A model generated the notes under the pieces. It had not been told where the DNA came from. It did no database searches and worked only from the letters and a program-made list of their open reading frames with translations. Below, piece after piece: positions 7,132 through 63,096 of a DNA stretch of 64,000 bases. Origin of the DNA: Kiritimatiellia bacterium (GTDB taxonomy: Bacteria; Verrucomicrobiota; Kiritimatiellia; CAIKKV01; CAITUY01); contig JBBQNS010000001.1 in assembly GCA_038330175.1 (NCBI GenBank), positions 15,552 through 79,551 of the forward strand, in the 5' to 3' direction. The stretch's first letter is position 1; every line of letters starts with the position of its first letter. The position numbers were made by a program, and so were the translations under genes.

Positions 7132-7245
7132 ACAATAAAATACCGACCGCGCATTGTCAGCACATTTCTTTTCTTACAGACCTCAGAGGTATGAGCCCGC
7201 CATTAGCGCAACATGGTTATGTAGCTGACTCAACCACCCGCTACG

Positions 7246-7452
7246 CTAGCAGCCTGTCGGGCTTCGCGCCTGTGGAGGGGCTACCGGCGGAGACCGCCGG
7301 CTCCAGAATATAATTTGCGTCAGCAAACAAGCGTCACGTGCTGCCCATTGCTGAATTCACCGAGGATAGCCCGTTCTTTTAATCTTTGGAGCCGGCGGTC
7401 ACCGCCGGTGGTGGCGGTTGAGTCCGAAGGCTGTGCAAGTCCGACAGGCTGC
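7246..7452. repeat. Complete ~205-bp MITE/REP-like element with ~60-bp imperfect terminal inverted repeats built around the core CTACCGGCGGAGACCGCCGGCTCC / GGAGCCGGCGGT(C/A)(T/C)CGCCGGT(A/G)G
   Basis: Left arm 7249–7306 and right arm 7387–7452 are reverse complements at both termini (GCAGCCTGTCGG...) and in the core. Related copies are at 56–125, 49831–50015 and 62976–63069. Confidence 0.7.
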
Positions 7453-7700: not shown

Positions 7701-9512
7701 TTGATAGAGAGCGCAGTCGGACGGGGCGGGAAAGCCTTACAGAACCTTTCATCCGGTGGCCTCTCCACATCATCGAAAGCGGAAGTGAACTCACGTATAC
7801 TTTTACTTGAGCAGGTGGTGGCGCAGGATCCTGGTTCCATGGAAGCTCACTACTGGCTGGGTTATTGCCTCTCCCTTCTGATCTTTGGCGAGGATGATAC
7901 CGTAAAGCGACTTAAGCGCGATGAGCGGCAAACCCGGGAATACGAGGCGGTTCTTGCAGGAACGGCGCCTGGAGACGCCCTGCGCGAGAAAGCCTTTTCC
8001 GAATACATGCAAGGCACCTGTGATCTACAGAATGTGGTTGCGGCACGCGCCACGAGCAACTACATGACGGCTCAAGAAATAGCCGAGTGGCAACCGAAGG
8101 CGCTTGCCGCCTGGCAACGTATGCGGGACTTCGTTGAGCGATATTTGACAGAGCCTCCGAAAAAGAAACGGGGCGATTATTTCCACCTCTTGCCGGCCTA
8201 CCGTTTGCGCCTGGCCAGCACGAACGATGCACAACCCTTAATCGATTGGTTCCTGCTGCTGGATACGGTTTACGGCTCCAATCATGCGGCTTATGACACG
8301 CGCTGCCCCTTCCTGTGCCTCGCCCAGGAGTTACTGTGGGCGAACCGGCCACAGCAGGCGCTGGCATTCTACCTGCGTGGAATGGAGGCGCATGGTCATG
8401 TTGCCACAACCCCGTGCCTCAACGGGAAAACGGCTTGGGGCCTTGAGTTGGAAATCCGCAAGGCACTCGGGGAGGGAGATTCAGATCAAGTGAAGCTGAT
8501 CGAGAAAACACTACAGGCGGAGGAGGCAGAACGTTGGTCATGTCAACCGTTACGGGAAGCCTTCTCCAAGTGGCCCGGCGCTGAGCCGCCCGTGGCCGAA
8601 GCTCCCGAGGGTCTCGTAGCAACCGTCGCCCGGTTCCCATTCGATGGTTCGGTTTTGGCCGCATCGACAGGCCGTTCCGACAGCTACTTCTTCATCGGCG
8701 CGGAAGGACTATCCGGTGGAAGTGGCAACGGTCAGCGCCGTGACCGCTACCGTGTTCATAAGCTCATTCGCAAGTCGCCGGGCTCGGGCATTACCGTGGA
8801 AATACCGCTCGAACGAAATGGAGAAACCGCTCGCGTCACCGTAATACTATCGGTCGGGGATACGGTGTGGTTCGGAACACATCAGGGTCTGGCAAGATAC
8901 GACGCTCGACGCCAAGACTCGCGCTGGCTGGAAAAAGCCGACGGAGTCCCCCTCTGCTCCATCCTGTCGGGCTGTTATGCAAACGGGAAACTGTGGTTCG
9001 GCGGCGACAATGGTGGCAATGCGTCGGTGATCTTTAGCCTGGACCCAGGTGAAGGCCGGGTTCGCACCTATGGTCTCGACATCGGACCGGCTTACGGCCC
9101 CCCATTGGGAATCGCCGTCCGGAAAGATATTGCCTTCGTCATAACACGCCCATGCGTCCATCAAATCGACCTCCGCTCTGGCCGGAGCACAGCGCTTGAA
9201 ATCCTTTCTCCGGCCGGCAAGTTGGCCGTCAATAAAAACGACATACGGCGTACCGGATATCAGCCGACAACCGTTCCTGTCTTCTGCCGGGGACAATGGT
9301 GGGTGGGGACGACAGGAGGATTGGCCTTACTCGAACAAGGGGATCCACCCGCCTTCCGCGTACTGTTTTCCACGGGGCACAATGAGTATCCGAGTGAATA
9401 TGAGGTCTTGGCGCGGCATTGCAAGGCGCGAGCCCTTCCGGGGCGGCGGCTTTGTTCCGAGCCGAGGGCGCGCTCTATCGGGGTCTCTACCACACCGGGG
9501 AAAACGCGCTGA
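7701..9512 (+). CDS. Large hypothetical protein. Its C-terminal part resembles two-component-regulator-propeller (Reg_prop/Y_Y_Y-like) repeats.
   Basis: A 603-aa ORF. Contains repeats such as VWFGTHQGLARYD and KLWFGGDNGG. The ORF continues in other frames downstream (see the 9419–10487 feature). Confidence 0.5.
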   Translation: MIESAVGRGGKALQNLSSGGLSTSSKAEVNSRILLLEQVVAQDPGSMEAHYWLGYCLSLLIFGEDDTVKRLKRDERQTREYEAVLAGTAPGDALREKAFSEYMQGTCDLQNVVAARATSNYMTAQEIAEWQPKALAAWQRMRDFVERYLTEPPKKKRGDYFHLLPAYRLRLASTNDAQPLIDWFLLLDTVYGSNHAAYDTRCPFLCLAQELLWANRPQQALAFYLRGMEAHGHVATTPCLNGKTAWGLELEIRKALGEGDSDQVKLIEKTLQAEEAERWSCQPLREAFSKWPGAEPPVAEAPEGLVATVARFPFDGSVLAASTGRSDSYFFIGAEGLSGGSGNGQRRDRYRVHKLIRKSPGSGITVEIPLERNGETARVTVILSVGDTVWFGTHQGLARYDARRQDSRWLEKADGVPLCSILSGCYANGKLWFGGDNGGNASVIFSLDPGEGRVRTYGLDIGPAYGPPLGIAVRKDIAFVITRPCVHQIDLRSGRSTALEILSPAGKLAVNKNDIRRTGYQPTTVPVFCRGQWWVGTTGGLALLEQGDPPAFRVLFSTGHNEYPSEYEVLARHCKARALPGRRLCSEPRARSIGVSTTPGKTR

Positions 9513-10487
9513 TTGAAATGGTACAGCACAATGATGATCACCACCCGCTGTTACAGGCAGAGGCAGCACGGCTACTGTGGGAAAGTCGGGCTTTCGCCCA
9601 CGGCGTCACCGATACCGCCCTGCTTCAATCGGCCCGCACACATTACCAAGTGGTGGCAAAAGGTCGGGGATCGGAGGCGATGTGGGCATGTTATGGTCTC
9701 ATGCGTCTTGCTGCTGCCTGCGCTGAGGACATCCCTTCACCGGCGCTGGAAGCAGCGCGGCGTTTCCCTCGCAGCGTGATCGCCGAGGAAGCCTGCAGGT
9801 TCTTGAATTCCTCGAATACCAGCACCCCTCCCGTGCTTTGCAGAACTATGGCCAGCCCACAGAAGGTCATAGCCGTTCGCCTCTTTCCCCGACGTGGCTT
9901 TGTCGCGGGGCAGCCGCTATGGGGAATACGGAGGCCTGGGCGGAAACAACGAGATCCAGAACTTGCTCGCAGAACTCCAGATATTGGAGTCATGGCAGAG
10001 CGCCGTGGCAATGGGGCAATACAATCAGCTTTTGGCCAACACCTCAGTGATGGCTACCTATTCTCATCGTTGGAAGCCCGTAACCGCACGCTTCTTACAT
10101 CAGCTTCGCGGAAGCGCTCTGGCCGAGTTAACGGGTTTGAAGGATTTAAAGGTAGCTGAAGGCCAGACGGAAGAACAAGCCGTACTTCTACTGGCACGCG
10201 TGGCAAAGGCTGCAAAAGACTGGAGCGCACTTGTCACCTGTCTCGACGCTTACCGATTAGCCGCCTTCGGAGTCCAACCCGTCCCGATTTGGCTCAATGA
10301 CGGTATTCAGGCCGGGCGGCAAATGGTGGCCGCCCGTCGGTTTGAGCAGGCGGGAGACGTGGCGCGTGCCGCATCGGCGTATGTCACCGTTCTCACGGCG
10401 GTATCGGATTTTGCCCCCGTGGAAGATGCGCTGCTGGATATCGGTCGGCTTCAAAAAATCAGGCCTGATGTCCTTGACTCATTATGA
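9419..10487 (+). pseudogene. Probable continuation of the 7701 gene in two further reading frames (9419–10159, then 9894–10487). This means either a frameshifted pseudogene or indel errors.
   Basis: Both overlapping ORFs read like real protein (helical/TPR-like LLQAEAARLLWESRAF..., then ...LLARVAKAAKDWSALVTCLDAYRLAAFG...). They abut the 603-aa ORF without intergenic space. Confidence 0.35.
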
Positions 10488-10497
10488 ATATGGGGGT

Positions 10498-11028
10498 TTA
10501 TAGAGACCCAGCCTTTGCAATAGTTACCTCGACAGTTGGTCTGTCCGTGAATTTCTCGAAACGCTTGTGTGCCAACACCTGGGCCAGACGCAACCGGTTG
10601 TAACGCTGGGCCAGAATGCACGGCAGATTAGCCACCACGCCATAGGCCACCATGACCAGCCCCACGCGCCAGCTGTTCCATAGAAAGAACAGCAACGCAG
10701 ACCCGCACACAACCCAGTGCACGATCTCGCCACGGCAGGTCTCTGTCAGGAAGCGGGCAAAATAATCTCGTCCGCCGCCTGCAAGTGACTTCTTCCGGAA
10801 TCCCTGTGTGAACAAGGCACCGCCATCTGGCAGAAGATCCTTCCAAGCCTTAATCGCGAAAAAACGTTCATAGACCCGTCCCCCCCGCTCCCACTTGCGC
10901 TCCCGAAAAAGCCAGCCTGCCGGGTTGAACCGCTCCGACGAAATCCGCATCCCCAGATAGGCCACGCCTAGATGGATCGTCAGCCACGCCAGGACATTGA
11001 CGACAACGATCCATAACGGCGAAATCAT
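10498..11028 (-). CDS. Glycosyl-4,4'-diaponeurosporenoate acyltransferase-like (CrtO-like) membrane protein
   Basis: A 176-aa hydrophobic protein with the WLFRERKWERGGRVYERF...KAWKDLLPD pattern typical of the staphyloxanthin CrtO family. Its ATGA overlap with the upstream GT2 gene suggests an operon. Confidence 0.55.
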   Translation of the reverse strand: MISPLWIVVVNVLAWLTIHLGVAYLGMRISSERFNPAGWLFRERKWERGGRVYERFFAIKAWKDLLPDGGALFTQGFRKKSLAGGGRDYFARFLTETCRGEIVHWVVCGSALLFFLWNSWRVGLVMVAYGVVANLPCILAQRYNRLRLAQVLAHKRFEKFTDRPTVEVTIAKAGSL

Positions 11029-12137
11029 ACCGCCCCCTTATCCGTCAGATCAATGCTTCGCCCCTTCCAGGACACATTCTTGCGCAACCCGGTCCTAACC
11101 AGCGAACGCATGAAAACCATGAGATAGAACAGCAGCGCTACGGGGTAACAGAGTGCCGTGATCCAGCGGAAGGATCCGATCCGAATCAGCATCATATAGA
11201 TCTGAACGGCATACAGCACATAAAGTATCAACCACACACCAAGGAGTTCACCCTTTACTGCGGCGATGGCGAGCAAAATGCCTGTGACCAGGCTCCCTGA
11301 TAACCACGCAATAATCGCCAAAAGCAACGTCAGAGGTGTCTGAGCCGCTCCTGTTGCAAATGCCTTAGCCCATCCCGCCTGCAACTCATGCACACCGTGA
11401 GGATACATTCGCATGGTCACAGTTCCCCTTCCCCCGCAGCAACGCATCGGTATGCCAGCCCGGCCAAAAAGCGGCGCCATGAAGAAGTTTTCAAGAATCT
11501 GGCCCCGCACCGCCGCATGCCCGCCAACCAACTCATAGGCCCGGCGGTCCACCATCAGAAAAGGCCCAAAAAGCCCTCCCGGGTTCAGTCTGCGGCCCGC
11601 TATCGTAAAGGCCCCCGTGCCTGCCGTCATGATAAGATTGAAGAAGGCTGACAACTCCTCATAATAACAGCGCACTTTATGATACGGCCCAATGGAAAGA
11701 ACGCCAGGACGGCGCGCATACGTATCCCGGATCGCGCGCAGGGCATGAGGTTCAAGGCGCGTATCGGCATCCATGAAGATCAGTACCGACCCGGAGGCCT
11801 CGTTGGCTCCTTGTTGGCAGGCCCACGTCTTGCCCCGCCACCCTGCGGGCAAAGGATGCGACGGCATCATACGCGCACCACCCGCAACCGCCACGGCGGC
11901 CGTCTGATCGCTCGACGAATCGTCAACCACAATGATCTCGTCTGGTGGCGGATCCTGTGAGGTCAGTGACTGGAGTAACCCCGGCAGATTTTCCTCTTCG
12001 TTCCGGGCGGGCACGATGACTGAAAGCGTGAAACCGGGTTCTGGCGCGGAACTGGGGCGGCATAAGGTAATGCGGCCTAGAAACACAAATCCCAGCGCCC
12101 ACAGCACGGTCACTGTCACCAGCAGCAAAACCGTCAT
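11025..12137 (-). CDS. Family-2 glycosyltransferase (CrtQ-like, 4,4'-diaponeurosporenoate glycosyltransferase-type)
   Basis: GT2 signature SVIVPARNEEENLPGLL...IIVVDDSSSD. The start at 12137 forms an ATGA overlap with the stop of the upstream desaturase gene. Confidence 0.7.
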   Translation of the reverse strand: MTVLLLVTVTVLWALGFVFLGRITLCRPSSAPEPGFTLSVIVPARNEEENLPGLLQSLTSQDPPPDEIIVVDDSSSDQTAAVAVAGGARMMPSHPLPAGWRGKTWACQQGANEASGSVLIFMDADTRLEPHALRAIRDTYARRPGVLSIGPYHKVRCYYEELSAFFNLIMTAGTGAFTIAGRRLNPGGLFGPFLMVDRRAYELVGGHAAVRGQILENFFMAPLFGRAGIPMRCCGGRGTVTMRMYPHGVHELQAGWAKAFATGAAQTPLTLLLAIIAWLSGSLVTGILLAIAAVKGELLGVWLILYVLYAVQIYMMLIRIGSFRWITALCYPVALLFYLMVFMRSLVRTGLRKNVSWKGRSIDLTDKGAV

Positions 12138-13618
12138 GGCCGATCCCATTCGATAATCTTGCGGCACACGTTCTGACCGCACAAAACGACCATGGGCATT
12201 CCGCCACCGGGGTTGACGGAACCTCCGACAAAGAAAAGGTTCGGGTAACGCGCATCTTGCTTAGGCGCCTTGAATCCAAAGTTTTTCCATTTGTCCGCCA
12301 CCACACCATAGATGGAGCCACAGTTCGAGTAGTACTGCTGCTGGATATCGCGGGGCGTCCAGACATGTTCAAACACGATGTGCTTGCGTAAGTCCGTAAG
12401 GCCCATGCGCTCGAGTTTGTCGATGACCCGCTCCTTGAAGGCCATGTAATCCGCATCCGTGAGCGGATGCGTCTCGTCCAGGCAGGGAATGTGGGGCAGG
12501 ATTTTCAGGCAATCACACCCGGGCGGCGCGACGGAGGGGTCTGTCTTCGACGCGGCCACCAGATAGATAGTGGGGTCGGCGGACAGCTCGCCCTTGTGGA
12601 ATACGGCATCGAAATGCTTCCGCGCATTAGCCGAATAGAAGAAGTTGTGGTGTGCCAGCTGCGGGTAGCTGATGTCCAGCCCCAGATCGAGAATCAGCCC
12701 GGAGCACGCCGGCTTGAAGCGCCGTAGTCGCCGCAGTGCGGCTTTATCCGGAGGAAGCAGTTGGCGGTGCGCCGGGATGAGCTCCATGTTCGAGACGACG
12801 ATATCCGCATCGGCCTGCCCACCATCGACCAGGGTGATCCCTGTGACGCGCTCACCCTGTGTTCGAATCCGGGCCACTTCGCGGTTCAGATGCACGACAA
12901 TTCCAAGTTCGTCCATCAACTTTTTTAATCCGTGGGCAATGTTGTATAGCCCGCCGTCCACGTACCAAAGATCATGACGAAACTGAATGGTCGGAAGGCA
13001 GTTCATGAACGCGGGCGCATCGTAAGCGGATGAGCCCACATACTTGATGAAGTAATCGAGCACATCGCGGACATGCGGCTCATCTATGAACCGAGCCACG
13101 CCCCCATGCATCGTGCGAAATAAATCAAACTTCAAAAAATCCATCAGGCCGTAATGGTGCTGAAAATCCTTAAGTGTGTCCAAACCGCGTTCAAAGTAGC
13201 CGGCGTTGACGGTATCGTAAAGTTTGCCTGCGTAATTCAGAAAAGCCTGGAACCGTTCAGGGTCCTGCCCGACCTTGCGCAATTCCGCCACCATCTGGTC
13301 CGTCTCCGGAACGAGGTCGAGCACCGTGCCGTCCTCAAAGAAATTTCGCCAATGCGGCCGCAGGGGCCGGATCGGGATGTAATCGGCCATGCGCTTTCCT
13401 GAGCGCTGAAAGAGCCGCTCGAAGAGATGGGGAAGCGTGAGGATCGAAGGGCCGAGATCAAACGAGTAACCTTGAGCCGTGAGGACATTCAGTTTCCCTC
13501 CGATCTGGGCGTTCTTTTCAAACACTTCGACCTGGTATCCCTCCTGCGCCAGCGAGATCGCCGCAGATAAGCCACCCAGCCCTGACCCGATCACAATCAC
13601 TTTTTTTGTTTCGCTCAT
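12134..13618 (-). CDS. Phytoene-desaturase-family enzyme (CrtN/CrtP/CrtI-like carotenoid desaturase or oxygenase)
   Basis: N-terminal FAD fold KKVIVIGSGLGGLSAAISLAQEGYQVEVFEKNAQIGGK. About 500 aa with a C-terminal NPGGGMP motif. The start at 13618 is MSETKK. Confidence 0.8.
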   Translation of the reverse strand: MSETKKVIVIGSGLGGLSAAISLAQEGYQVEVFEKNAQIGGKLNVLTAQGYSFDLGPSILTLPHLFERLFQRSGKRMADYIPIRPLRPHWRNFFEDGTVLDLVPETDQMVAELRKVGQDPERFQAFLNYAGKLYDTVNAGYFERGLDTLKDFQHHYGLMDFLKFDLFRTMHGGVARFIDEPHVRDVLDYFIKYVGSSAYDAPAFMNCLPTIQFRHDLWYVDGGLYNIAHGLKKLMDELGIVVHLNREVARIRTQGERVTGITLVDGGQADADIVVSNMELIPAHRQLLPPDKAALRRLRRFKPACSGLILDLGLDISYPQLAHHNFFYSANARKHFDAVFHKGELSADPTIYLVAASKTDPSVAPPGCDCLKILPHIPCLDETHPLTDADYMAFKERVIDKLERMGLTDLRKHIVFEHVWTPRDIQQQYYSNCGSIYGVVADKWKNFGFKAPKQDARYPNLFFVGGSVNPGGGMPMVVLCGQNVCRKIIEWDRP

Positions 13619-13890
13619 AGGCCTTCCTTTCTTTCCACGCCTCTTGTAAAACGCTACGGACGACACGGAGGTCGTCCCTCCATCTTGCAAGCCAGGCCGT
13701 TTCCATCATCTTCTGGAGGGTCGTGCTCCGTCACGACCGTCTTCTCTGGAGGTTTTGCAAGAGCCTCCCCCGTATCGTCCGCGTTACCTGTGAAACACAG
13801 TAACCGAGACATGGTCAGACATAGACGCTATTTCATGATCCCTTATACATTAACCTTGACTAGAAACCATGTTTTTTTTCTACTTACGGC

Positions 13891-15273
13891 ATGGGAGTAA
13901 ATTACAGCTTGGAAAACGTGCGTAGTTTATGGGAGACAGGCATAACCTTGCCCCTCTCTTTCCGGCGTGAACAGCTCCTGACGCTGCAACATGCCATCGA
14001 AGTTAACGAAGGCGTCATCCTCGATGCCTTGCGGGCCGATCTTGGTAAGCCGCCTTGCGAAGCCTATGCCTCGGAACTGGGCTTTGTGCTGGCCGATATC
14101 CAGTACGCGTTGAAACATCTTGCCGCCTGGGCGCGCCCCCAACGACACCATACACCGCTCGGGTTGCAGCCCGCGCGAAGCTCGGTACATCCCCAACCCT
14201 ACGGTATCGTTTTGATTATCGGACCTTGGAACTACCCCTTTGCCCTGACCCTCTCCCCGCTGGTATCCGCCCTGGCGGCCGGAAATGGTGTCTGCATGAA
14301 ACCCTCCGAGTTCGCCCCGCAGGTGTCGGCGGTGCTGGCACGTCTTGCCCGTGAGTATTTCCGACCAGACATCCTGACCGTCATCGAAGGCGATGCCACG
14401 GTTGCCGGAACCCTTGCCCGCCTGCCATTTGACAAGATATTCTTCACCGGCAGTACGGCGGTGGGCCGCCGCGTGCTGGAGGCGGCAGCAGCGAATCTCA
14501 TACCCGTTACCCTTGAACTGGGCGGCAAATCACCTTGTATCGTTTGTGACGATGCCGACCTGCGGGTCGCCGCACGCCGCATTGCCTGGGGCAAGTTTCT
14601 CAACGCGGGGCAAACCTGTGTCGCGCCCGATCATGTGTGGGTCCAAGCCTCCTGCCTGCGCCCGCTGGTGGAGCACCTTACGGCTACGATCCAGACATTC
14701 TATGGCCCCAACCCGCAACAGAGCCCCGACTACAGTCGCATTATCAACCTCCATCACCTGCAGCGGCTGACCGCCTATCTCGGGCAAGGACACCTCGAGT
14801 GCGGAGGGCAGCATGATCTGAATGATCGATACCTCGCTCCAACCATTATGACTGGTGTTCCGCTTGCGGCCTCCATCATGCAGGAGGAAATTTTTGGTCC
14901 CATCCTGCCGGTTCTGCCGTTCAACACGCTGGATGAGGTCATCAAGCAGGTCCGGACGCAGCCGCGGCCGCTGGCCCTTTACGCATTCACCGAAAACCGC
15001 GCAACACAAACGCGCCTTCTGGCGGAGACCTCTTCCGGTGGCGTCTGTTTCAACGACACCGTGAGCCACATTCTGGCACGCGATCTCCCGTTTGGTGGTA
15101 TCGGCGCCAGCGGCATGGGCGCCTATCACGGAAAGGCGGGATTCGATGCGTTCACACATTACCGAAGCGTCATGACGCGCTCCTTGCATTGGGATCCAGG
15201 ATTCAAGTATCCTCCGGTTACAACTTCGCTTGTCGCCATGAAACGTATCTATCGATTCCTATTAGGGAGTTAA
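13891..15273 (+). CDS. Aldehyde dehydrogenase family protein (candidate diapolycopene-dialdehyde / carotenoid aldehyde dehydrogenase)
   Basis: ALDH motifs ELGGKSP and FTGSTAVGRRV, plus the catalytic-Cys region GQTCVAPD. A 460-aa ORF. Confidence 0.85.
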   Translation: MGVNYSLENVRSLWETGITLPLSFRREQLLTLQHAIEVNEGVILDALRADLGKPPCEAYASELGFVLADIQYALKHLAAWARPQRHHTPLGLQPARSSVHPQPYGIVLIIGPWNYPFALTLSPLVSALAAGNGVCMKPSEFAPQVSAVLARLAREYFRPDILTVIEGDATVAGTLARLPFDKIFFTGSTAVGRRVLEAAAANLIPVTLELGGKSPCIVCDDADLRVAARRIAWGKFLNAGQTCVAPDHVWVQASCLRPLVEHLTATIQTFYGPNPQQSPDYSRIINLHHLQRLTAYLGQGHLECGGQHDLNDRYLAPTIMTGVPLAASIMQEEIFGPILPVLPFNTLDEVIKQVRTQPRPLALYAFTENRATQTRLLAETSSGGVCFNDTVSHILARDLPFGGIGASGMGAYHGKAGFDAFTHYRSVMTRSLHWDPGFKYPPVTTSLVAMKRIYRFLLGS

Positions 15274-15282
15274 GGAGCCACT

Positions 15283-16794
15283 ATGCCCAAAACAAAACAT
15301 ATCGTCATTGTTGGTGCCGGTCCGGGCGGTTTGACTTCCGCCATGATCCTGGCCCACCGCGGATTCAAGGTCACGCTTTTTGAAAAGCAACCCCAGGTCG
15401 GTGGTCGGAATGCAGCCCTGCGAGCGGGTCCCTTTGTGTTTGACGTTGGTCCGACTTTCCTGATGTTGAAAAGTGTGCTGGACGAGGTTTTCCACGAGGC
15501 TGGCGCAACCACCGATGCTTTGATGGATATGCGCCGGATCGAACCCATGTACCGGCTACAGTTCGCTGACAAATGGATCGAGCCCTCCACCGACCGGGCG
15601 CGCATGAAAGCCGAAATTGCGCGCGTGTTCCCCGGTCGCGAGGATTCTTATGACGCATTCATGGCGAGAGAGCAAGCGCGGTTCCGCCACCTCTTCCCGT
15701 GCCTGCAGAAATCCTATCACCGGTTTTCCTCCCTGTTCTCACCCGACCTGCTCAAAGCCCTGCCCCATATGGCCCTGGGCCGTACTCTTTTCTCGGAGGT
15801 CTTTCGTATCTTCAAACAAGAAGACCTGGCGCTATCCTTCACCTTCCAATCCAAGTACCTCGGCATGTCACCATGGGAATGCCCGGGACTGTTCTCGATG
15901 ATCCCCTACATCGAGCACGCCTACGGCATCTATCATCCCATCGGCGGCTTGAGCCGTATTTCCGAATGTATGGCGGAGGTCGCGCAGCGCAATGGCGCCA
16001 CGATTCGTCTCGGCACACCTGTTGAACAAATCATTGTGCGCAACGGCGTGGCGACAGGAGTGCGCCTGACGGGCGGCGAGGTTGTGGACGCCGACGAAGT
16101 GGTGATCAATGCCGACTTTGGACATGCCGCCACGGAGCTTTTCGCCCCGGGCGCACTTAAAAAGTACACTCCTAAAAAATTAGCAGGAATGAAGCTTTCC
16201 TGTTCTACCTTTATGATGTACCTGGGGCTCGATACGATTCTTGACCTGCCGCACCACTCGATCATTTTTGCGCGCGACTATCGGACCAACATCGAGCGCA
16301 TTTTCAAAGGGCAGGAACTGTCCGGCGATCTCTCGTTCTATATACGCAATGCCAGTATCACGGATCCGACGCTTGCGCCGGCAGGCCAGTCGGCACTTTA
16401 TATCCTCGTTCCCGTCCCGAATCTTCGAAGCGGACTGGACTGGGAGCAGCGTCGCGCGGCCTACCGGGAAATGACTCTGGACGCCGTGACGGCGCGCACG
16501 GGAGTGAATCTGCGCAACCACATCATATCAGAAAATATCGTCACGCCGGCCGACTGGAAAGAAACCTATCAGGTGTATGAAGGCGCCACCTTCAACCTGG
16601 CGCATAACATGGCCCAGATGGTTTACCTGCGGCCACGCAACAAATTTGAGGACGTCGACAACTGCTATCTGGTCGGCGGCGGCACTCACCCCGGCAGTGG
16701 GTTGCCCACAATCTACGAATCAGGGCGGATCTCCGCTAACCTCATCTGCCGCCGCCATAATATTCCGTTTGTTTCAGGTAACCTTGAGGTTTGA
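15283..16794 (+). CDS. Phytoene-desaturase-family enzyme (CrtI/CrtN-like carotenoid desaturase)
   Basis: KHIVIVGAGPGGLTSAMILAHRGFKVTLFEKQPQVGGR FAD-binding N-terminus. A 503-aa ORF with a C-terminal GGGTHPGSG motif. Confidence 0.85.
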   Translation: MPKTKHIVIVGAGPGGLTSAMILAHRGFKVTLFEKQPQVGGRNAALRAGPFVFDVGPTFLMLKSVLDEVFHEAGATTDALMDMRRIEPMYRLQFADKWIEPSTDRARMKAEIARVFPGREDSYDAFMAREQARFRHLFPCLQKSYHRFSSLFSPDLLKALPHMALGRTLFSEVFRIFKQEDLALSFTFQSKYLGMSPWECPGLFSMIPYIEHAYGIYHPIGGLSRISECMAEVAQRNGATIRLGTPVEQIIVRNGVATGVRLTGGEVVDADEVVINADFGHAATELFAPGALKKYTPKKLAGMKLSCSTFMMYLGLDTILDLPHHSIIFARDYRTNIERIFKGQELSGDLSFYIRNASITDPTLAPAGQSALYILVPVPNLRSGLDWEQRRAAYREMTLDAVTARTGVNLRNHIISENIVTPADWKETYQVYEGATFNLAHNMAQMVYLRPRNKFEDVDNCYLVGGGTHPGSGLPTIYESGRISANLICRRHNIPFVSGNLEV

Positions 16795-20342: not shown

Positions 20343-21212
20343 TCAAACCAACACGATTCGGCGCATGACTTCCGTGAAAAAGTCCTTTGACCACAGAGCC
20401 AAGGCTTGCCGATCCCGCACGAAAGGCTCGACGTCAGCAATGGCCTGCCTCACGTCCAGGCGGTCGACCGCATCAGCGAGTTGGCGCCGTAATTCGTCCG
20501 GCGCCAGTGCATGGGCTGCAGTGTAGTCTCCAGATTGGCGCATGCGAAATTCCAGATGCCGGACGTGCAGCTCCGGGTGTCGCCCCGCATACCAAACCAG
20601 ATCGTACCAGTCCCTTCCCTTTACCCGGTTCTTCCATTTCCGACACAGCACGGCATGGATTTTGCCAGCAAAGAGGTCGGGCAAAGAATAGGTGCGTACG
20701 GCAAAGGGGACAGGCTGGAGAACATACTTCGTTTCAGTGGTAAATCCGGGCGGGGGCTTTGTATCCACTTCCAGTTTGATCGTGAGTTGACGTCCTAAGG
20801 GAAGCGTTGCAACCATTTCAGGAGCCGCCTCCAGCACAATCATTTGTTGCACGGTGTCCGTCTTGAGAAATGCCGACTCAATCGCCGAGGCCTTCCGCAC
20901 GTTCGGTTTCTGATCAAACCGCACTGAAAACCCGAAACTACGGAGTTCATTCTGCAGCGCATCTCCGTAGCGGGCCAGTGTGAAATGGGCATCCGGCTTG
21001 AGGAGCGAGAAGTCCAGATCCTCCGAATAGCGGTCAAGCCCGTGAAGGATCCTCAGAGCGGTTCCTCCATAGAAAGCGGCATGCTCAAAAAACTTGCTTC
21101 GCCACAACCCCAGCAGCGCCAGTTCCTGAAGAATCTCGCGAAGGGCATTCAAGTAATCGTCACGGGTCTTGCAGTCGTACCGAGCCAACATCTGCCTAAC
21201 AGCCTCATTCAT
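20343..21212 (-). CDS. abiEii: AbiEii/AbiGii-family nucleotidyltransferase toxin (type IV TA / abortive-infection)
   Basis: Canonical FYGGTALRILHGLDRYSEDLDFSL motif. A 289-aa ORF. Overlaps the upstream abiEi stop by 4 nt. Confidence 0.85.
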   Translation of the reverse strand: MNEAVRQMLARYDCKTRDDYLNALREILQELALLGLWRSKFFEHAAFYGGTALRILHGLDRYSEDLDFSLLKPDAHFTLARYGDALQNELRSFGFSVRFDQKPNVRKASAIESAFLKTDTVQQMIVLEAAPEMVATLPLGRQLTIKLEVDTKPPPGFTTETKYVLQPVPFAVRTYSLPDLFAGKIHAVLCRKWKNRVKGRDWYDLVWYAGRHPELHVRHLEFRMRQSGDYTAAHALAPDELRRQLADAVDRLDVRQAIADVEPFVRDRQALALWSKDFFTEVMRRIVLV

Positions 21213-21859
21213 CGGTGTTTCCTCCGTGTGCGTTGGACGGCTTCAACCAATCCCGCGATCCGGGAGTCGTTATACCCTCCGGCAATTTCCTGCACCGCCT
21301 TCAGATCCAGTTGGGCAAGTCGTTCCCGGTCAATACGCAAATCGTCAAACAAGTAGACGGCATAATCGATGGACGCCGAGGGTTTAAACCGTCGATCCAA
21401 CCAAACGATATCAGCCAATGCCTTTTCAGGTGATGCGATTAGAAAATAATCAGCGCCGCTCTTCGCCTGCGTTAGTCCCATGGCGTAAGGCATCATGGGA
21501 ATCCGGCGATAAGTGAACAAACCGAACGGCGTCTGAAACCGGCGAGTCTTGCCACTGGTGACGCTCGTGACTACGTTTACCCGCTCGGGAATCATCCCAT
21601 GATGACTGAGGGCATACTGTAAACTGATATAGGAAGGCCCGCAAATGAGGTTAGCAAGAAGTTCCCTGCAAACCGGTTGCCGCCGCCACGCCTCTCCGAA
21701 AACATACAACCCCTTCTTGACACGCACAACGGCCCCTGTGGCCATCAAAGAACTGATCTTGTCACGTGGCTTGGAGTACTCCCGCAGAACATCCATCAGC
21801 TGCTGGTAGTCGATGACTTCCCAGTCAATGCTTCGTCTTAGTTCTTCCATTACATTCAC
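21209..21859 (-). CDS. abiEi: AbiEi-family antitoxin / transcriptional regulator
   Basis: 216 aa. Typical AbiEi N-terminal wHTH plus C-terminal domain (GLYVFG...ALSHHGMIPE). Immediately upstream of abiEii with a 4-nt overlap. Confidence 0.8.
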   Translation of the reverse strand: MNVMEELRRSIDWEVIDYQQLMDVLREYSKPRDKISSLMATGAVVRVKKGLYVFGEAWRRQPVCRELLANLICGPSYISLQYALSHHGMIPERVNVVTSVTSGKTRRFQTPFGLFTYRRIPMMPYAMGLTQAKSGADYFLIASPEKALADIVWLDRRFKPSASIDYAVYLFDDLRIDRERLAQLDLKAVQEIAGGYNDSRIAGLVEAVQRTRRKHR

Positions 21860-38216: not shown

Positions 38217-39215
38217 TTACACCCAGTAATAGAGTTCGCGGTACCATTTGGCCCAAGTTCGGAATCCGGGATTATCGGTCACTTCCGCCGCCGCCACTAG
38301 GGCGTCTGATGGGAACCCAAAAAAACGGTCTTTTCGGCCCAATAAGTTTTTAAACGCTTCCATGGCGGGCAAAAGGCGCTCGTTCCGAGGATGATAGACC
38401 ACCGAGGAGAATACCTTCTTATACCGGCCATTCGGATCGGCTTCAATGGCCGTCGCCAACAGCTGATTCCGCCATAATTGATTCAGCGCGCCCTTGAAAG
38501 GACAGGATGCCTCTTTCTGCAGGGTTTCAAGCGGAAAAGCGGATTCATTCTGCAAGGTGATTTTCCAGTAATTAAACTTTTTCGCAGAATGGTAGTAACA
38601 GTTTTCCCGCCCTAACCGTGCCGCTGCATTACTATCACAGGCCTCCTTGTGCCGGTTCGCCGGACTTCGATAAGCCCCGCATGCAGCAAACTCAGCTTCG
38701 GTCAATTTGTGCTCAATCAACCACAGACACAACTCCCCCTCCTGGTTCCGGTACGCGATCGCGATATCCACATCGGTTCCGCTGTCCGGAGTATGGTCAC
38801 CCAGCCGATTCACCCCTTGATCCCAGAATTCGAGGCGAAAGCCATGGCCGAGTTCCTCAACTGCAATCGATTTCAAGTCCGTCTTAACCGTCCTCAAAAC
38901 CTCAGCAGCACACACAGGCGACTCCATCAGCGGCAAAAATAGATTGGCACACGCGATTTGCGAACTGGCCATGTGGCCGGCGAATTTATGCGTCTTGAAC
39001 GGGAAGTTTTTCTGATGATTCAGGAACTGATCTCGAACGGGCCCATAGAGGTGCGGCAGCCCCTTCTGCATCTTCCCCGGCAAAATAACATCGTATAAGG
39101 CCCCGCCGAAACTGCCCGGCAGAGCCGTTATATTCCGGCTTTTCCACTCGCACAAATGGCGATACATCTCTTGCTGGAATTCATTTAATTGTTCAGGTAT
39201 TCGATATTTTATCAT
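38217..39215 (-). CDS. Hypothetical protein with a PD-(D/E)xK restriction-endonuclease-like motif
   Basis: GTDVDIAIAY...GELCLWLIEHKLTE fits the D-x(n)-(D/E)-x-K core of the PD-(D/E)xK fold. No family match was recalled. Slightly lower GC than its flanks. Confidence 0.4.
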   Translation of the reverse strand: MIKYRIPEQLNEFQQEMYRHLCEWKSRNITALPGSFGGALYDVILPGKMQKGLPHLYGPVRDQFLNHQKNFPFKTHKFAGHMASSQIACANLFLPLMESPVCAAEVLRTVKTDLKSIAVEELGHGFRLEFWDQGVNRLGDHTPDSGTDVDIAIAYRNQEGELCLWLIEHKLTEAEFAACGAYRSPANRHKEACDSNAAARLGRENCYYHSAKKFNYWKITLQNESAFPLETLQKEASCPFKGALNQLWRNQLLATAIEADPNGRYKKVFSSVVYHPRNERLLPAMEAFKNLLGRKDRFFGFPSDALVAAAEVTDNPGFRTWAKWYRELYYWV

Positions 39216-49313: not shown

Positions 49314-49832
49314 ATGAAGATTATCGCCTGTGACCAACGCCACGTACCGCAAATTAGGACCATTTTTAATGATGCCATCTTGAATTCTACGGTACTCTGG
49401 GAATATGAGCCCCGCAGCCTGAAAACAGTCACGGACTGGTTTGAATCGAAGCGAAAGGGATCCTTTCCTGTAATTGGAATGGAAAATGATTTGGGTGAAT
49501 TCATGGGATTTGCCAGTTATGGAACTTTTCGTGACCGGCCGGGATATAAATACACTGCCGAACATTCCGTATACGTCGACCAACGGTTCCGCGGAAAGGG
49601 AATTGGCTCTCTCTTGATGAAGGAGTTGATCGTAAGCGCCCAATCTCACGATCTCCACACCCTGATTGGAGCCATTGATACCACCAATGAAGCCAGCATC
49701 GCGCTCCATCGCAGCCTTGGCTTTGAATACTGTGGCAGCATCAAACAAGCTGGCTTTAAGTTCGGGCGCTGGCTGGACATGGTCTTTTATCAGTTGATCT
49801 TGCCTACTCCGGCCCGCCCCATCGCTGGCTAA
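49314..49832 (+). CDS. GNAT-family N-acetyltransferase (phosphinothricin/PAT-like)
   Basis: GNAT motif A QRFRGKGIGSLLMKELI. ATG at 49314 (MKIIACDQ). Its TAA stop lies at the first bases of the adjacent repeat element. Confidence 0.75.
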   Translation: MKIIACDQRHVPQIRTIFNDAILNSTVLWEYEPRSLKTVTDWFESKRKGSFPVIGMENDLGEFMGFASYGTFRDRPGYKYTAEHSVYVDQRFRGKGIGSLLMKELIVSAQSHDLHTLIGAIDTTNEASIALHRSLGFEYCGSIKQAGFKFGRWLDMVFYQLILPTPARPIAG

Positions 49833-50015
49833 CAGCCTGTCGGGCTGCGCACCCTCGTAAGGCTACCGGCGGAGACCGCCGGCTCCAGAATATAGCTCGC
49901 GTCGGTAATCAAGCGCCATGTGCTTCACATTGCTTAATCCACCGAGGATAGCCCCGGATCTCCATCTTTGGAGCCGGCGGTCTCCGCCGGTAGTGAAGGT
50001 CTAGGCTGAAGGCGG
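49831..50015. repeat. MITE/REP-like element copy (left arm, diverged centre, and a truncated right arm)
   Basis: CAGCCTGTCGGG...CTACCGGCGGAGACCGCCGGCTCCAGAATAT...TTGGAGCCGGCGGTCTCCGCCGGTAG. The centre is ~75 % identical to the 7246–7452 copy. Confidence 0.7.
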
Positions 50016-50020
50016 TTGCA

Positions 50021-50100: not shown

Positions 50101-50198
50101 ACACCGAAATTATCGTGTGCCCAAGAAATACCGACTGGAATATAAAATTTGTAATATATCGTCGCTTCCGCGTAATAGGAACTAGAGGGCTACATCCA

Positions 50199-50756
50199 GT
50201 GAACGAAGAAGAACTAGATCTACTTGTCGAACGGATCCAAAACGGTGACCGGGAGGCCTTTGGCGAAGTAGTGTTTGCCATCCGTAAAGAACTGCGGATT
50301 TTCCTCTCTGCCCACGCTTGCTCCGTCGATATGGTCGAAGAAGTACTCCAACACACCTTGGTGGTATGTTACGAAAACATCGCGAAATATGAACGACGCG
50401 GCACCTTTCTTTCCTGGACCAAGGGCATTGCCCGTAATCTCATGCTCAAAGAGCTTAAGGCCCGCTCCCGCTATGTGGCGCCCGGAGAGGACGAATTGGA
50501 TCGGATCGTTCTCGATGCCTCCATGCAATCGATCAAAGCCTTGGATCGTGAAGAAGTTTACGTGGAACACCTGCGCCATTGCCTCACTAAACTGTCCGAT
50601 GACTCACGCCAACTTGTGCAACAACGGTATTTCGACCGGTTATCAATCCGGGAGCTTGCGGAACGAAATCACCGAACCGAAACCTGGGTTGCTGTCGCCT
50701 TGTTCCGTGTGCGAGACATTCTGAGAGATTGCATGATGAGAGAGGTGGCCTCATGA
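50199..50756 (+). CDS. ECF-family RNA polymerase sigma factor (sigma-70 region 2 + region 4)
   Basis: ELDLLVERIQNGDREAFGEVV (region 2 start) and a C-terminal RQLVQQRYFDRLSIRELAERNHRTETWV HTH (region 4). Probable GTG start at 50199, with a GAGGG RBS 9 nt upstream. Confidence 0.8.
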   Translation: MNEEELDLLVERIQNGDREAFGEVVFAIRKELRIFLSAHACSVDMVEEVLQHTLVVCYENIAKYERRGTFLSWTKGIARNLMLKELKARSRYVAPGEDELDRIVLDASMQSIKALDREEVYVEHLRHCLTKLSDDSRQLVQQRYFDRLSIRELAERNHRTETWVAVALFRVRDILRDCMMREVAS

Positions 50757-52561
50757 ATGAACAAGAATTCATCCTGTTGATGGAAGAATACCTTGAGGGA
50801 AGCATTACCCCCCAAGGCCGGTTTGCCCTCAAGACCGAAGTATTAAAAAATCCCACACGCCGCCAGCTCTTTGAAAACCAGGCGCGGCAACATGTGCGGC
50901 TCCATGCCCAATCCAGCCGGATCGATTTCTCAGAATCTCAACGTATCGCCGTCATGGTCATGGATATTGCAGATAAGCAGAAGGAACCCAATGCCTTCAT
51001 GGAACTGATCCGCAAAAAAACCTTCCGTGAACGGGCCTCGTTGATTCTGAAAGGACTGCGAGCCGCTCCGGGCACGCCCGCCCACCGCGCAGCCAAAGCC
51101 GAATTAATTCGAATATTCGGCCCCGCAAGCCTTTCAGTAGTCGTCAATGTCGCCGCCCTACTCCTGCTCCTGTTCTGGGTTCCCTACGTCCTCCCCCCTC
51201 CGCCCGGCGACAGCAGAGCAGATACCGAAGGCGTCGTCATCAATCTGGGTGATCCCCAGGCGGACAATTCGAAACCACAAGCTGATAATAATCCTGATAA
51301 TTCCCAATCGGACTCACACCCTGATAAGGGCTCGATATCGGCCCCAAATATCGGCACTGCGCAAGGCCCAGTCGGCCCCATCATTCCGGGGTACGATGGG
51401 CCCCCGACGGACATCATGGATATAGCCCCCCCGGGAAAACCAAATAATGATGGCGACCTCCTGGCTATGACCCCGAAAACCAAGGGGATTACAGCGTCCC
51501 TATTTCCCGGTTCCCGCGGTAATCGCGACAGAAAGGATCGTGACCGTATTCTTATTGAACAAAAGGCCACCAAAACGGAGATAGCCGTAGTGAAAGCCCT
51601 CAAGTGGCTCAAAGCCAAACAATTACCGGATGGAAGCTGGCCGGGCCAGGATACTACGGCCATGACCGGCTTGGCGTTGCTCACTTACCTGGCACATAAC
51701 GAAATGCCGACATCACCCCAATTCGGTGACACCGTAACGCACGGCCTGCAAAGCCTACTTAAAAATCAAAGCAAGGATGGCGCCTTTTCACAAAACGTCT
51801 ATGCGCACGCCATTGCCACCTACGCCATTGCGGAAGCGTATACCATGACGCGCATCATGGATCTTAAAGCTCCTCTCGAAAAAGCGGTCAGCGTCATCAT
51901 TAAAGGTCAGCAAACTAATGGCGGTTTCGATTATAACTACCTGAAAGGATCACGGTTCGATACCTCCGTCACGGGTTGGCAAATTCAAGCGCTAAAGGCC
52001 GCGCGTACCGCAGAGCCCGACATGGACGGTTTGGAAGAAGCGCTCGCCCGCTCCACACGATTCCTTCTCTCGGATGCCTTTGCCCGAGATGGAAGCGGCT
52101 TTGTCTATGAGGGAAAAAACGGGGTCGTGTCCGCCAGCGGCGGCAAACAGAGCATGACAGGGGTCGGCACCCTCTGCCTGCAAATGCTTGGCAAAAATAC
52201 TTCAGCCCCGGTCAGGGCAGGACTTAAAGTGCTTCAGAATGCCGAACTCGAATGGGTGCCTGATGGCAAAGCCAATGTCTATACCAGCTATTATGTAGCG
52301 CAAGCCAAGTTTCAGAGCGGGAATCAACCCGAGTGGATGCGCTGGAACCTCAACATGCAAAAAATCCTACTGGCCAGGCAGGATAAAGACGGACACTGGG
52401 AGCAAGGCGACTTCGATAATGGCTCCCATGTCTATACCACCACACTTTGCGTATTGATGCTGGAAGTGTATTATCGGTATCTTCCTTCTGATGCACATCC
52501 AATCGAACAAAAACCAGCAGGAAAGATCGTCTCAGGAGATGTCCTCATTGACGTCCTCTAA
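50753..52561 (+). CDS. Anti-sigma factor-like membrane protein with a C-terminal prenyltransferase/squalene-oxidase-repeat (terpenoid cyclase / alpha-alpha toroid) domain
   Basis: ATGA overlap with the sigma gene stop. The N-terminal cytoplasmic helix EEYLEGSITPQGRFAL is anti-sigma-like. There is one TM segment (VVNVAALLLLLFWVPYVL) and a Pro/Asp-rich linker. C-terminal repeats KWLKAKQLPDGSWPG...NQSKDGAFS...GQQTNGGFDYNY. Confidence 0.65.
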   Translation: MNEQEFILLMEEYLEGSITPQGRFALKTEVLKNPTRRQLFENQARQHVRLHAQSSRIDFSESQRIAVMVMDIADKQKEPNAFMELIRKKTFRERASLILKGLRAAPGTPAHRAAKAELIRIFGPASLSVVVNVAALLLLLFWVPYVLPPPPGDSRADTEGVVINLGDPQADNSKPQADNNPDNSQSDSHPDKGSISAPNIGTAQGPVGPIIPGYDGPPTDIMDIAPPGKPNNDGDLLAMTPKTKGITASLFPGSRGNRDRKDRDRILIEQKATKTEIAVVKALKWLKAKQLPDGSWPGQDTTAMTGLALLTYLAHNEMPTSPQFGDTVTHGLQSLLKNQSKDGAFSQNVYAHAIATYAIAEAYTMTRIMDLKAPLEKAVSVIIKGQQTNGGFDYNYLKGSRFDTSVTGWQIQALKAARTAEPDMDGLEEALARSTRFLLSDAFARDGSGFVYEGKNGVVSASGGKQSMTGVGTLCLQMLGKNTSAPVRAGLKVLQNAELEWVPDGKANVYTSYYVAQAKFQSGNQPEWMRWNLNMQKILLARQDKDGHWEQGDFDNGSHVYTTTLCVLMLEVYYRYLPSDAHPIEQKPAGKIVSGDVLIDVL

Positions 52562-62975: not shown

Positions 62976-63069
62976 TAGACAGTCACTACCGGCGGAGACC
63001 GCCGGCTCCAAAAATTGAGAACTGGAGCTATCCTATTATATTCTGGAGCCGGCGGTCCCCGCCGGTAGC
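62976..63069. repeat. Short (~95-bp) variant of the MITE/REP-like element: CTACCGGCGGAGACCGCCGGCTCC - 35-nt loop - GGAGCCGGCGGTCCCCGCCGGTAG
   Basis: Same core palindrome as the other three copies. Located between the convergent ends of the GH18 gene and the URO-D-family gene. Confidence 0.65.
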
Positions 63070-63096
63070 CTTCCTTGGGTGCGAAACCAAACAGGC

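Follow-up and report, generated by a model that had tools for sequence, protein, structure and literature searches.

We describe here a cluster of five intact carotenoid genes in a 64-kb stretch of DNA (hereafter the window) from contig JBBQNS010000001.1 of a Kiritimatiellia bacterium. The locus is an ordinary example of the known five-gene route to acylated sugar esters of C30 carotenoid acids, and we estimate at about three in four the probability that it encodes, in a Kiritimatiellia-like bacterium of the Planctomycetes-Verrucomicrobia-Chlamydiae (PVC) superphylum, the late steps of such a pathway, which would be fed by squalene and would yield C30 carotenoid acids as acylated glycosyl esters. 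The direct observations behind this estimate comprise the identities of the genes, the clade placement of their products, the synteny of the cluster with that of its relatives, the lack of a backbone synthase in the window, and the finding that the hairpins between the two operons belong to a dispersed repeat. A sequence-only reading of the same DNA had proposed a C30 pathway and, between the operons, operator sites of an unseen regulator; the pathway assignment stands, whereas the inverted repeats and TTGCAAG boxes taken for operators have to be read differently.

Enzymes of the cluster

The cluster occupies positions 10498-16794; its minus-strand genes are crtO, crtQ and crtP, its plus-strand genes aldH and crtN (coordinates and profile scores are given in the table). 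The five open reading frames (ORFs) match their family profiles and, as proposed earlier, form two divergent operons, the minus-strand genes being coupled by ATGA overlaps, found between the crtQ stop and the crtO start (11025-11028) and between the crtP stop and the crtQ ATG (12134-12137). Because of the second overlap we place the start of crtQ at ATG 12137, giving 370 aa; the ORF itself is 385 aa long and stays open up to a GTG at 12182 (11025-12182), and a Logan contig of the same organism, on which genes were called independently, likewise gave a 370-aa crtQ. The crtP ATG is preceded by the ribosome-binding site AAGGAAGG, and on the opposite strand a gap of 9 nt lies between aldH and crtN, AAGGAG spanning the aldH stop codon.

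The products of crtP and crtN both score above the cutoff of TIGR02734 (phytoene-desaturase family) and pass no equivalog cutoff. They were placed with labelled references drawn from annotated plasmids, namely a Staphylococcus warneri crtO-crtP-crtQ-crtM-crtN operon and the clusters of Palleronia and Azospirillum, each of which combines two crtI-family genes with those of a GT2, an acyltransferase and an ALDH, together with C40 references (CrtI of Pantoea, Thermus and Streptomyces and a haloarchaeal CrtD-type gene), in a neighbour-joining tree of 67 sequences and 490 trimmed columns with 200 bootstraps and HpnE as outgroup. By sequence, the 494-aa oxidase is an orthologue of CrtP: it is 48% identical to S. 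warneri CrtP (455 bits), as against at most 30% identity and 253 bits to any CrtN or CrtI reference, its clade also holds Staphylococcus CrtP together with a Cytobacillus homologue (bootstrap 99), and it has in common with Staphylococcus CrtP the C-terminal signature of the CrtP class, FVGGSVNPGxGMPMV. The 503-aa oxidase, judged in the same way, is a member of the CrtN clade (signature LVGGGTHPGSGLPTI). Its closest labelled homologue is the first oxidase of the Palleronia cluster, a CrtN adjoining hpnC, hpnD and hpnE (45%, 444 bits), followed by that of Azospirillum at 41% identity. Together with its relatives it groups with these alphaproteobacterial first oxidases (bootstrap 99), the group joins CrtN of Staphylococcus and Niallia (bootstrap 97), all CrtI and CrtD references fall outside, and the CrtN-class C-terminal signature LVGGGTHPGSGLPTIYES is present. 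Clustering of the desaturases with C40 CrtI or CrtD, the test set beforehand for the sequence-only reading, thus did not occur, and its two CrtN/CrtP-family oxidases are borne out. HpnE was considered as the identity of either oxidase and rejected.

The remaining three genes belong to the families that had been ascribed to them. The family-2 glycosyltransferase (GT2) is homologous to S. warneri CrtQ over its full length (35% identity, E 8e-81) and 28% identical to the GT2 of the alphaproteobacterial clusters. The 176-aa membrane protein belongs to the CrtO family by profile (PF18927) and by its 33% identity over 141 aa to S. warneri plasmid CrtO (E 6e-25), both proteins having the motif (N)xPCxxxQRYNR; an acyltransferase of the LPLAT type was sought in the window as well and rejected. 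The aldehyde dehydrogenase (ALDH), 42% identical to its counterpart in the hpnCDE-linked C30 cluster of Palleronia, has intact catalytic motifs (ELGGKSP and NAGQTCVAP), and its gene adjoins crtN in relatives as well; this context suggests a carotenoid aldehyde as its substrate. A CrtQ-type GT2, a CrtO-type acyltransferase and a cluster-linked ALDH, all three expected of a C30 glycosyl-ester pathway, are accordingly present.

From these genes we infer the substrate and product of the pathway, with the order of reactions following from orthology. The 503-aa CrtN would desaturate a C30 backbone to 4,4'-diaponeurosporene or 4,4'-diapolycopene, and the 494-aa CrtP would oxidise a terminal methyl group to an aldehyde, which AldH would convert to the carboxylic acid; CrtQ would then esterify a sugar onto the acid and CrtO would acylate the sugar. 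The backbone itself would be squalene from an enzyme of the Sqs or HpnD type whose gene lies beyond the window.

Source of the C30 backbone

The absence of crtM and crtB from the window, already remarked upon in the sequence-only reading, was upheld by every search. A Pfam scan of all ORFs of at least 100 aa found no SQS_PSY-family gene in the 64 kb, tblastn of the window with CrtM, CrtB, HpnC, HpnD, HpnE and Sqs-like queries returned only noise (E >= 0.1), and a six-frame hmmsearch with a hidden Markov model built from these synthase-family queries gave no match at E <= 10. HpnE is likewise absent from the 64 kb, and the window holds no polyprenyl synthase, crtB, crtE, crtY or any cyclase.

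A precedent for such a cluster exists. The passages of Santana-Molina et al. 2022 (PMC9907078) that deal with this gene set report that it occurs without crtM, that it is fed by squalene, as experimentally shown in Planctopirus, and that it is widespread, including in Verrucomicrobia; the pathway was reconstituted in Escherichia coli from hpnCDE or a cyanobacterial sqs, and the pigments are C30 carotenoid acids with glycosyl and acyl decorations. According to the same passages, CrtM is restricted to Firmicutes, carriers of CrtN outside Firmicutes, Verrucomicrobia included, have HpnCDE or Sqs rather than CrtM, and crtN and crtP stand in operons with aldH, crtQ and crtO across distant genomes. 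Given these findings, a cluster of this composition lacking crtM is the expected form outside Firmicutes. The backbone here is most probably squalene, without any need of crtM, a route that is the published explanation for this gene set and is supported indirectly by the present data, in which CrtN groups with hpnCDE-adjacent CrtN at bootstrap 99.

Further support comes from a comparison of gene neighbourhoods covering 80 genome loci with a homologue of the 503-aa protein and 3 metagenome neighbourhoods. This copy and nearly all relatives examined have no in-cluster sqs. At one locus of a Verrucomicrobiota metagenome-assembled genome (MAG), L006, whose CrtN is 67% identical, a 275-aa SQS_PSY gene lies within the minus-strand operon, between crtP and a gene for a TPR-like protein that is described below. 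Its best NCBIfam profile is squalene synthase (63.7 bits), followed by HpnD (48 bits), both below cutoff, with no CrtM model among its NCBIfam matches. The protein is 67-76% identical to proteins of about 270 aa that are abundant in cyanobacteria, among them a 277-aa protein of Synechocystis sp.; the 277-aa product of sll0513 is the squalene synthase of Synechocystis PCC 6803, as verified by deletion (PMC3953072). By length, source organism and annotation, the L006 synthase is possibly of the sll0513 type. It supports squalene as a substrate in this lineage, not the choice made by this genome. As an observation in its own right, it suggests lateral transfer between cyanobacteria and PVC bacteria.

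Two other origins of the backbone have to be weighed against squalene. The same five enzymes might act on 4,4'-diapophytoene supplied by a dehydrosqualene synthase of the CrtM type whose gene lies elsewhere in the genome, as in the classical Staphylococcus route; only 64 kb of the genome is in view, and CrtP, CrtQ and CrtO are nearer to Staphylococcus than to the alphaproteobacterial cluster proteins, the latter with an LPLAT-type acyltransferase. We nevertheless regard this as improbable, as CrtM is reported only in Firmicutes in the relevant passages of PMC9907078, CrtN groups with hpnCDE-linked CrtN and not with the CrtM-linked CrtN of Firmicutes, and the sole synthase in an orthologous cluster, that of L006, matches squalene synthase best and HpnD next. 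Still less probable is a pathway in which the oxidases act on C40 or other carotenoids, that is, a CrtI/CrtD-type route to glycoside esters resembling thermozeaxanthin-like or myxol-type esters. NCBIfam gives only the generic crtI_fam, with CrtD and CrtID matches below threshold, the 503-aa protein scores about as high in pairwise comparison with CrtI as with Staphylococcus CrtN, and the aforementioned passages of PMC9907078 describe a "CrtN-like" branch with C40 substrates. Both proteins, however, lie in the CrtN and CrtP clades (bootstrap 97 and 99) and outside those of CrtI and CrtD, the genes that a C40 route would call for are missing from the window, as listed above, and both gene set and gene order agree with C30 operons. 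The squalene-fed C30 pathway remains our preferred reading.

A putative divergent promoter region and its repeats

The nearest CrtN homologues (63-84% identity) are found in MAGs labelled Verrucomicrobiota (in the sense of GTDB), Kiritimatiellia, Tichowtungia, Pontiellaceae, Lentisphaerae and Hydrogenedentota. For the formate-tetrahydrofolate ligase (FTHFS) encoded in the window, the closest relatives stand at 85-95%, and MAGs of Kiritimatiellia, Kiritimatiellota, Lentisphaerae and Verrucomicrobia at 76-77%. These relatives place the host, an uncultured bacterium, in the PVC group near Kiritimatiellia; its exact proteins were found on one 87-kb NCBI contig and on Logan contigs of SRR19962012 only. 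The divergent layout, with crtO-crtQ-crtP facing aldH-crtN, recurs in relatives from Kiritimatiellia, Hydrogenedentota, Acidobacteriota and Victivallales; other lineages have single-strand arrangements, many with crtN alone. Homologues of the 503-aa protein with no crtP, aldH, crtQ or crtO within 10 kb were seen in Geobacter, Thermodesulfobacteriota, Endomicrobia and archaeal MAGs. For Clostridia, too, the literature notes such homologues as unclear in function (PMC9907078).

In close relatives an extra gene, the first of the crtP operon, lies between crtP and aldH. Its product of about 261 aa shows faint TPR matches as well as a signal peptide or lipobox. The gene adjoins the C30 cluster in at least 14 loci and stands directly upstream of crtP in many clusters of PVC bacteria and Chitinivibrionales. 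No homologue of it, remnant or relocated, gave a significant tblastn match in the window. What persists is the CAT at 13834-13836 that aligns with the start codon in relatives; in the window the frame ends after two codons (ATG AAA TAG). What sets this copy apart is that it has lost this gene and carries a doublet of repeats in the divergent promoter region.

Next to the remnant start lies a conserved core, CTTATACATTAACCTTGAC, which hardly differs in L089, L090, L092 and L005, the four closest relatives (78-84% CrtN identity), its CTTGAC being invariant as far as relatives at 66-67%. In the alignment of relatives, the block upstream of aldH reads CAT-(5-8 nt)-CTTATACA(A/T)TAA(C)CTTGAC, with the aldH ATG following after about 30 nt. 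From this conservation we infer a promoter in the core and a leader ahead of crtP: transcription would start both ways from the compact core at 13842-13860, the aldH-crtN transcript would be close to leaderless, and that of crtP-crtQ-crtO would have a leader of about 220 nt, with REP-like (repetitive extragenic palindromic) units in place of the ancestral TPR-like first gene. The roughly 215 bp from the remnant to the crtP start are indeed the place of the lost gene and hold the hairpins. Such a leader, if transcription starts at the core, would fold at -82.4 kcal/mol (z = -3.1); any regulatory effect of it is speculation. One might go on to imagine a lineage with a short squalene synthase as in L006, possibly of the sll0513 type and from cyanobacteria, and with a dependence on the secreted TPR-like protein, both of them lost from the cluster here and crtPQO being expressed through a structured REPIN-like leader, possibly regulatory, but we think this scenario unlikely. 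Rfam searches returned nothing at gathering scores in the whole window and nothing at E <= 1 in the intergenic region, and no relevant tRNAs or tandem repeats were found.

The inverted repeats noted previously, GGACGAC-N6-GTCGTCC at 13658-13677 and GGTCGTG-N6-CACGACC at 13719-13738, are present, as are the two TTGCAAG boxes at 13685 and 13755, and they exceed chance: the 64 kb contain about 45 hairpins whose perfect stem measures 7 bp or more, so that about 0.2 would be expected in the 272 bp concerned, and for TTGCAAG the expectation is about 10 copies in 64 kb (about 0.04 in 272 bp). The hairpins are REP-like palindromes arranged as a REPIN-like doublet, and their reading as operators is not supported. 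The first repeat lies in a 27-nt unit, ACGGACGACACGGAGGTCGTCCCTCCA, and the second in an inverted partner, TGGAGGGTCGTGCTCCGTCACGACCGT, whose arms are 78% complementary to unit 1; a partial third unit, CGGACGATACGGGGGAGG on the minus strand, pairs with unit 1 (87% over 15 nt). The TTGCAAG boxes belong to the outer arms of the same nested palindrome as the hairpins. In L090 and L092 the TPR-like gene also has a CTTGCAA at its 3' end, and one of the boxes may, on this slender ground, be a remnant of that gene.

Unit 1 recurs without mismatch (27/27) at 15488-15514 of L090, between two unrelated convergent genes, and the pattern ACGGACGAC-N6-GTCGTCCCTCCA, with a free loop, was found on at least 120 metagenome contigs (L097-L216), from many datasets judging by contig prefixes. 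Loops in this family are mostly ACGGAG or ACGGCG. Partner units consist of TGGAGGG-stem-loop-stem, the stems varying in sequence and yet staying complementary (for example TGGAGGGTCGGGCTCCGTCCCGACCGT in L168), and unit 2 of the window fits their consensus; a partner unit lies within 70 nt in 59 of the 124 family matches listed. Many dispersed copies, palindromic units and inverted doublets are the hallmarks of REP and REPIN sequences. A test for an intergenic position of the copies is uninformative here, since most positions of the GC-rich repeat contigs are covered by stop-free frames of 120 aa or more. General Pfam scans of the window ORFs showed no REP-associated tyrosine transposase (RAYT, Y1), and in the literature the hairpin sequence matched only unrelated primers, with no paper found that contains the motif. 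As for the assembly of this region, the Logan contigs of the same organism (SRR19962012) stop on either side of it, L217 ending at 13683, at the edge of unit 1, and L001 beginning at 14106 inside aldH, so that 13683-14105 is spanned by the NCBI MAG contig only.

The notion that a dedicated regulator has its operators in the inverted repeats and TTGCAAG boxes draws on their non-random occurrence, their position between divergent operons and the unusually stable fold of the leader that holds them. We consider it highly improbable: the repeats are missing from the orthologous promoter of the four closest relatives, where another motif is kept, they sit in sequence that replaced a gene of those relatives, no regulator gene is adjacent, the exact copy of unit 1 stands at an unrelated site in L090 within a family spread over at least 120 metagenome contigs, and compensatory variation of the stems points to a repeat maintained by structure rather than to a protein-specific sequence. 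Just as improbable is a cluster in decay, its TPR-like first gene lost, the repeats invading and crtPQO silenced. It is true that a gene kept beside crtP in at least 14 related loci is gone here, down to an ATG with a stop two codons later. The five genes are, however, of full length with motifs intact and translational coupling kept, and several relatives are likewise without the TPR-like gene or other cluster genes.

Several points weigh against a functional, squalene-fed C30 pathway as we propose it. No backbone synthase lies within the 64 kb, and squalene as substrate is unproven for this genome; an SQS_PSY gene occurs within 10 kb of crtN in only 1 of the 80 genome loci, which is thin linkage evidence for squalene. 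The pairwise scores of the 503-aa protein are about equal for Staphylococcus CrtN (249 bits), Thermus CrtI (253) and Pantoea CrtI (234), and although the neighbour-joining tree settles this ambiguity, the CrtN placement depends on that tree, in which C40 references are few. The best NCBIfam match of AldH is a benzaldehyde dehydrogenase model, below the model cutoff. The pathway might suffer from having lost the conserved TPR-like gene, and a scan for the sigma-70 consensus found no site in the intergenic region, overall counts being at chance level.

Other features of the window and comparison with known systems

Table. Features of the window and, where a locus is named, of related clusters.
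Feature	Position	Strand	Remarks
crtO, glycosyl-carotenoate acyltransferase (predicted), membrane protein, 176 aa	10498..11028	-	PF18927 110 bits (cutoff 27.3)
crtQ, family-2 glycosyltransferase, 370 aa from ATG 12137	11025..12137	-	PF00535 2.3e-21
crtP, C30 carotenoid terminal oxygenase (aldehyde-forming, predicted), 494 aa	12134..13618	-	crtI_fam TIGR02734 347 bits
aldH, carotenoid aldehyde dehydrogenase (predicted), 460 aa	13891..15273	+	PF00171 2.5e-87
crtN, C30 backbone desaturase (predicted), 503 aa	15283..16794	+	crtI_fam TIGR02734 444 bits
REP-like unit 1	13656..13682	-	holds first inverted repeat; 27/27 copy in L090
REP-like unit 2	13714..13740	+	inverted relative to unit 1, 31-nt spacer (REPIN-like doublet)
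Partial third REP-like unit	13764..13781	-	pairs with unit 1
Remnant start of lost TPR-like gene	13828..13836	-	aligned CAT is start codon in relatives
Conserved core of divergent promoter region	13842..13860		aligned in relatives; putative promoter
TPR-like gene, relatives	L089:6301-7092(-), L090:7764-8549(-), L092:7764-8549(-), L005:9146-9916(-)
TPR-like gene, relatives	L006:7697-8476(-), L008:7326-8057(-), L010:7715-8560(-)
TPR-like gene, relatives	L023:18939-19910(-), L032:18538-19302(-), L049:5956-6777(+)
SQS_PSY gene, 275 aa	L006:6725-7552	-	between TPR-like gene and crtP
Solitary CrtN-class homologues	within L012-L084		e.g. L045, L052, L072
MITE-like intergenic repeat, four copies	49-125, 7239-7434, 49822-50016, 62979-63085
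Three overlapping ORFs	7701-9512, 9419-10159, 9894-10487	+	frames 0, 2, 0
AbiEii-type nucleotidyltransferase toxin gene and 216-aa ORF	20343-21859	-
PD-(D/E)XK "REase-ARP" nuclease gene	38217-39215	-
ECF-type sigma factor gene and 610-aa ORF	50115-52561	+	33 kb from crt cluster

Elsewhere in the window, an intergenic repeat of about 100-200 bp resembling a miniature inverted-repeat transposable element (MITE) is present in four copies; its hairpins, CCGGCGG-NNN-CCGCCGG, are paired, and GCAGCCTGTCGG ... CCGACAGGCTGC form its terminal inverted repeats. The three overlapping plus-strand ORFs within 7701-10487, to which Pfam gives a weak TPR_14 match only, might make up a single long gene with TPRs that is broken by two frameshifts, or a pseudogene. 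The AbiEii-type toxin gene and its 216-aa neighbour are a possible type IV toxin-antitoxin pair, a nuclease gene of the PD-(D/E)XK class lies elsewhere, and the 610-aa ORF that overlaps the gene of an extracytoplasmic function (ECF) sigma factor may encode an anti-sigma factor.

With this cluster, the organisms known to have the C30 carotenoid glycosyl-ester pathway come to include an uncultured PVC lineage resembling Kiritimatiellia, and we found no paper on carotenoids of Kiritimatiellota. A missing crtM is to be expected in such a lineage and is not a puzzle. Neighbours and relatives have genes of anaerobe type, such as FTHFS/FolD, HydF and Mbh-like complexes. CrtP presumably requires O2, a need that, if true, would hint at oxygen exposure in the lineage. 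Two by-products of the analysis are a conserved TPR-like partner of the cluster and a widespread, GGAGGG-headed repeat family that can be mistaken for operators.

Among known systems, the closest parallel is Planctopirus limnophila, with hpnCDE and crtN, crtP and aldH together with crtQ and crtO (Santana-Molina et al. 2022, PMC9907078): both have the same five downstream enzymes without crtM, and both are PVC-superphylum bacteria with acylated glycosyl esters of C30 acids as the product class, a predicted one for the present locus. A divergent layout in two operons and a Kiritimatiellia-like host, as found here, are not described in the passages of that paper devoted to the gene set. The Staphylococcus crtOPQMN operon, represented by the S. 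warneri plasmid, is similar in CrtP (48% identity), CrtQ (35%), CrtO (33%) and CrtN (30%) and in its use of a PF18927 acyltransferase; it differs in having crtM within a single operon and aldH elsewhere, whereas here aldH is part of the cluster, crtM is missing and the operons are two and divergent. With the alphaproteobacterial, Methylobacterium-type clusters of Palleronia (L003) and Azospirillum (L004) the locus has in common CrtN (45% and 41%), ALDH (42% to Palleronia), a GT2 and the squalene-route type, but these clusters have an LPLAT-family acyltransferase in place of CrtO and a CrtP that is only 35-36% identical; Palleronia in addition carries adjacent hpnCDE, DUF2141 and a sulfotransferase, and Azospirillum also has DUF2141. 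The hairpins, finally, resemble REP and REPIN sequences in their units of 23-27 nt, GC-rich stems, dispersal, frequent inverted pairs spaced about 30 nt apart and compensatory stem changes, and differ from them in that no RAYT was seen, only one doublet occurs per 64 kb, and the GGAGGG head with a CTCCGT or similar loop is absent from Rfam.

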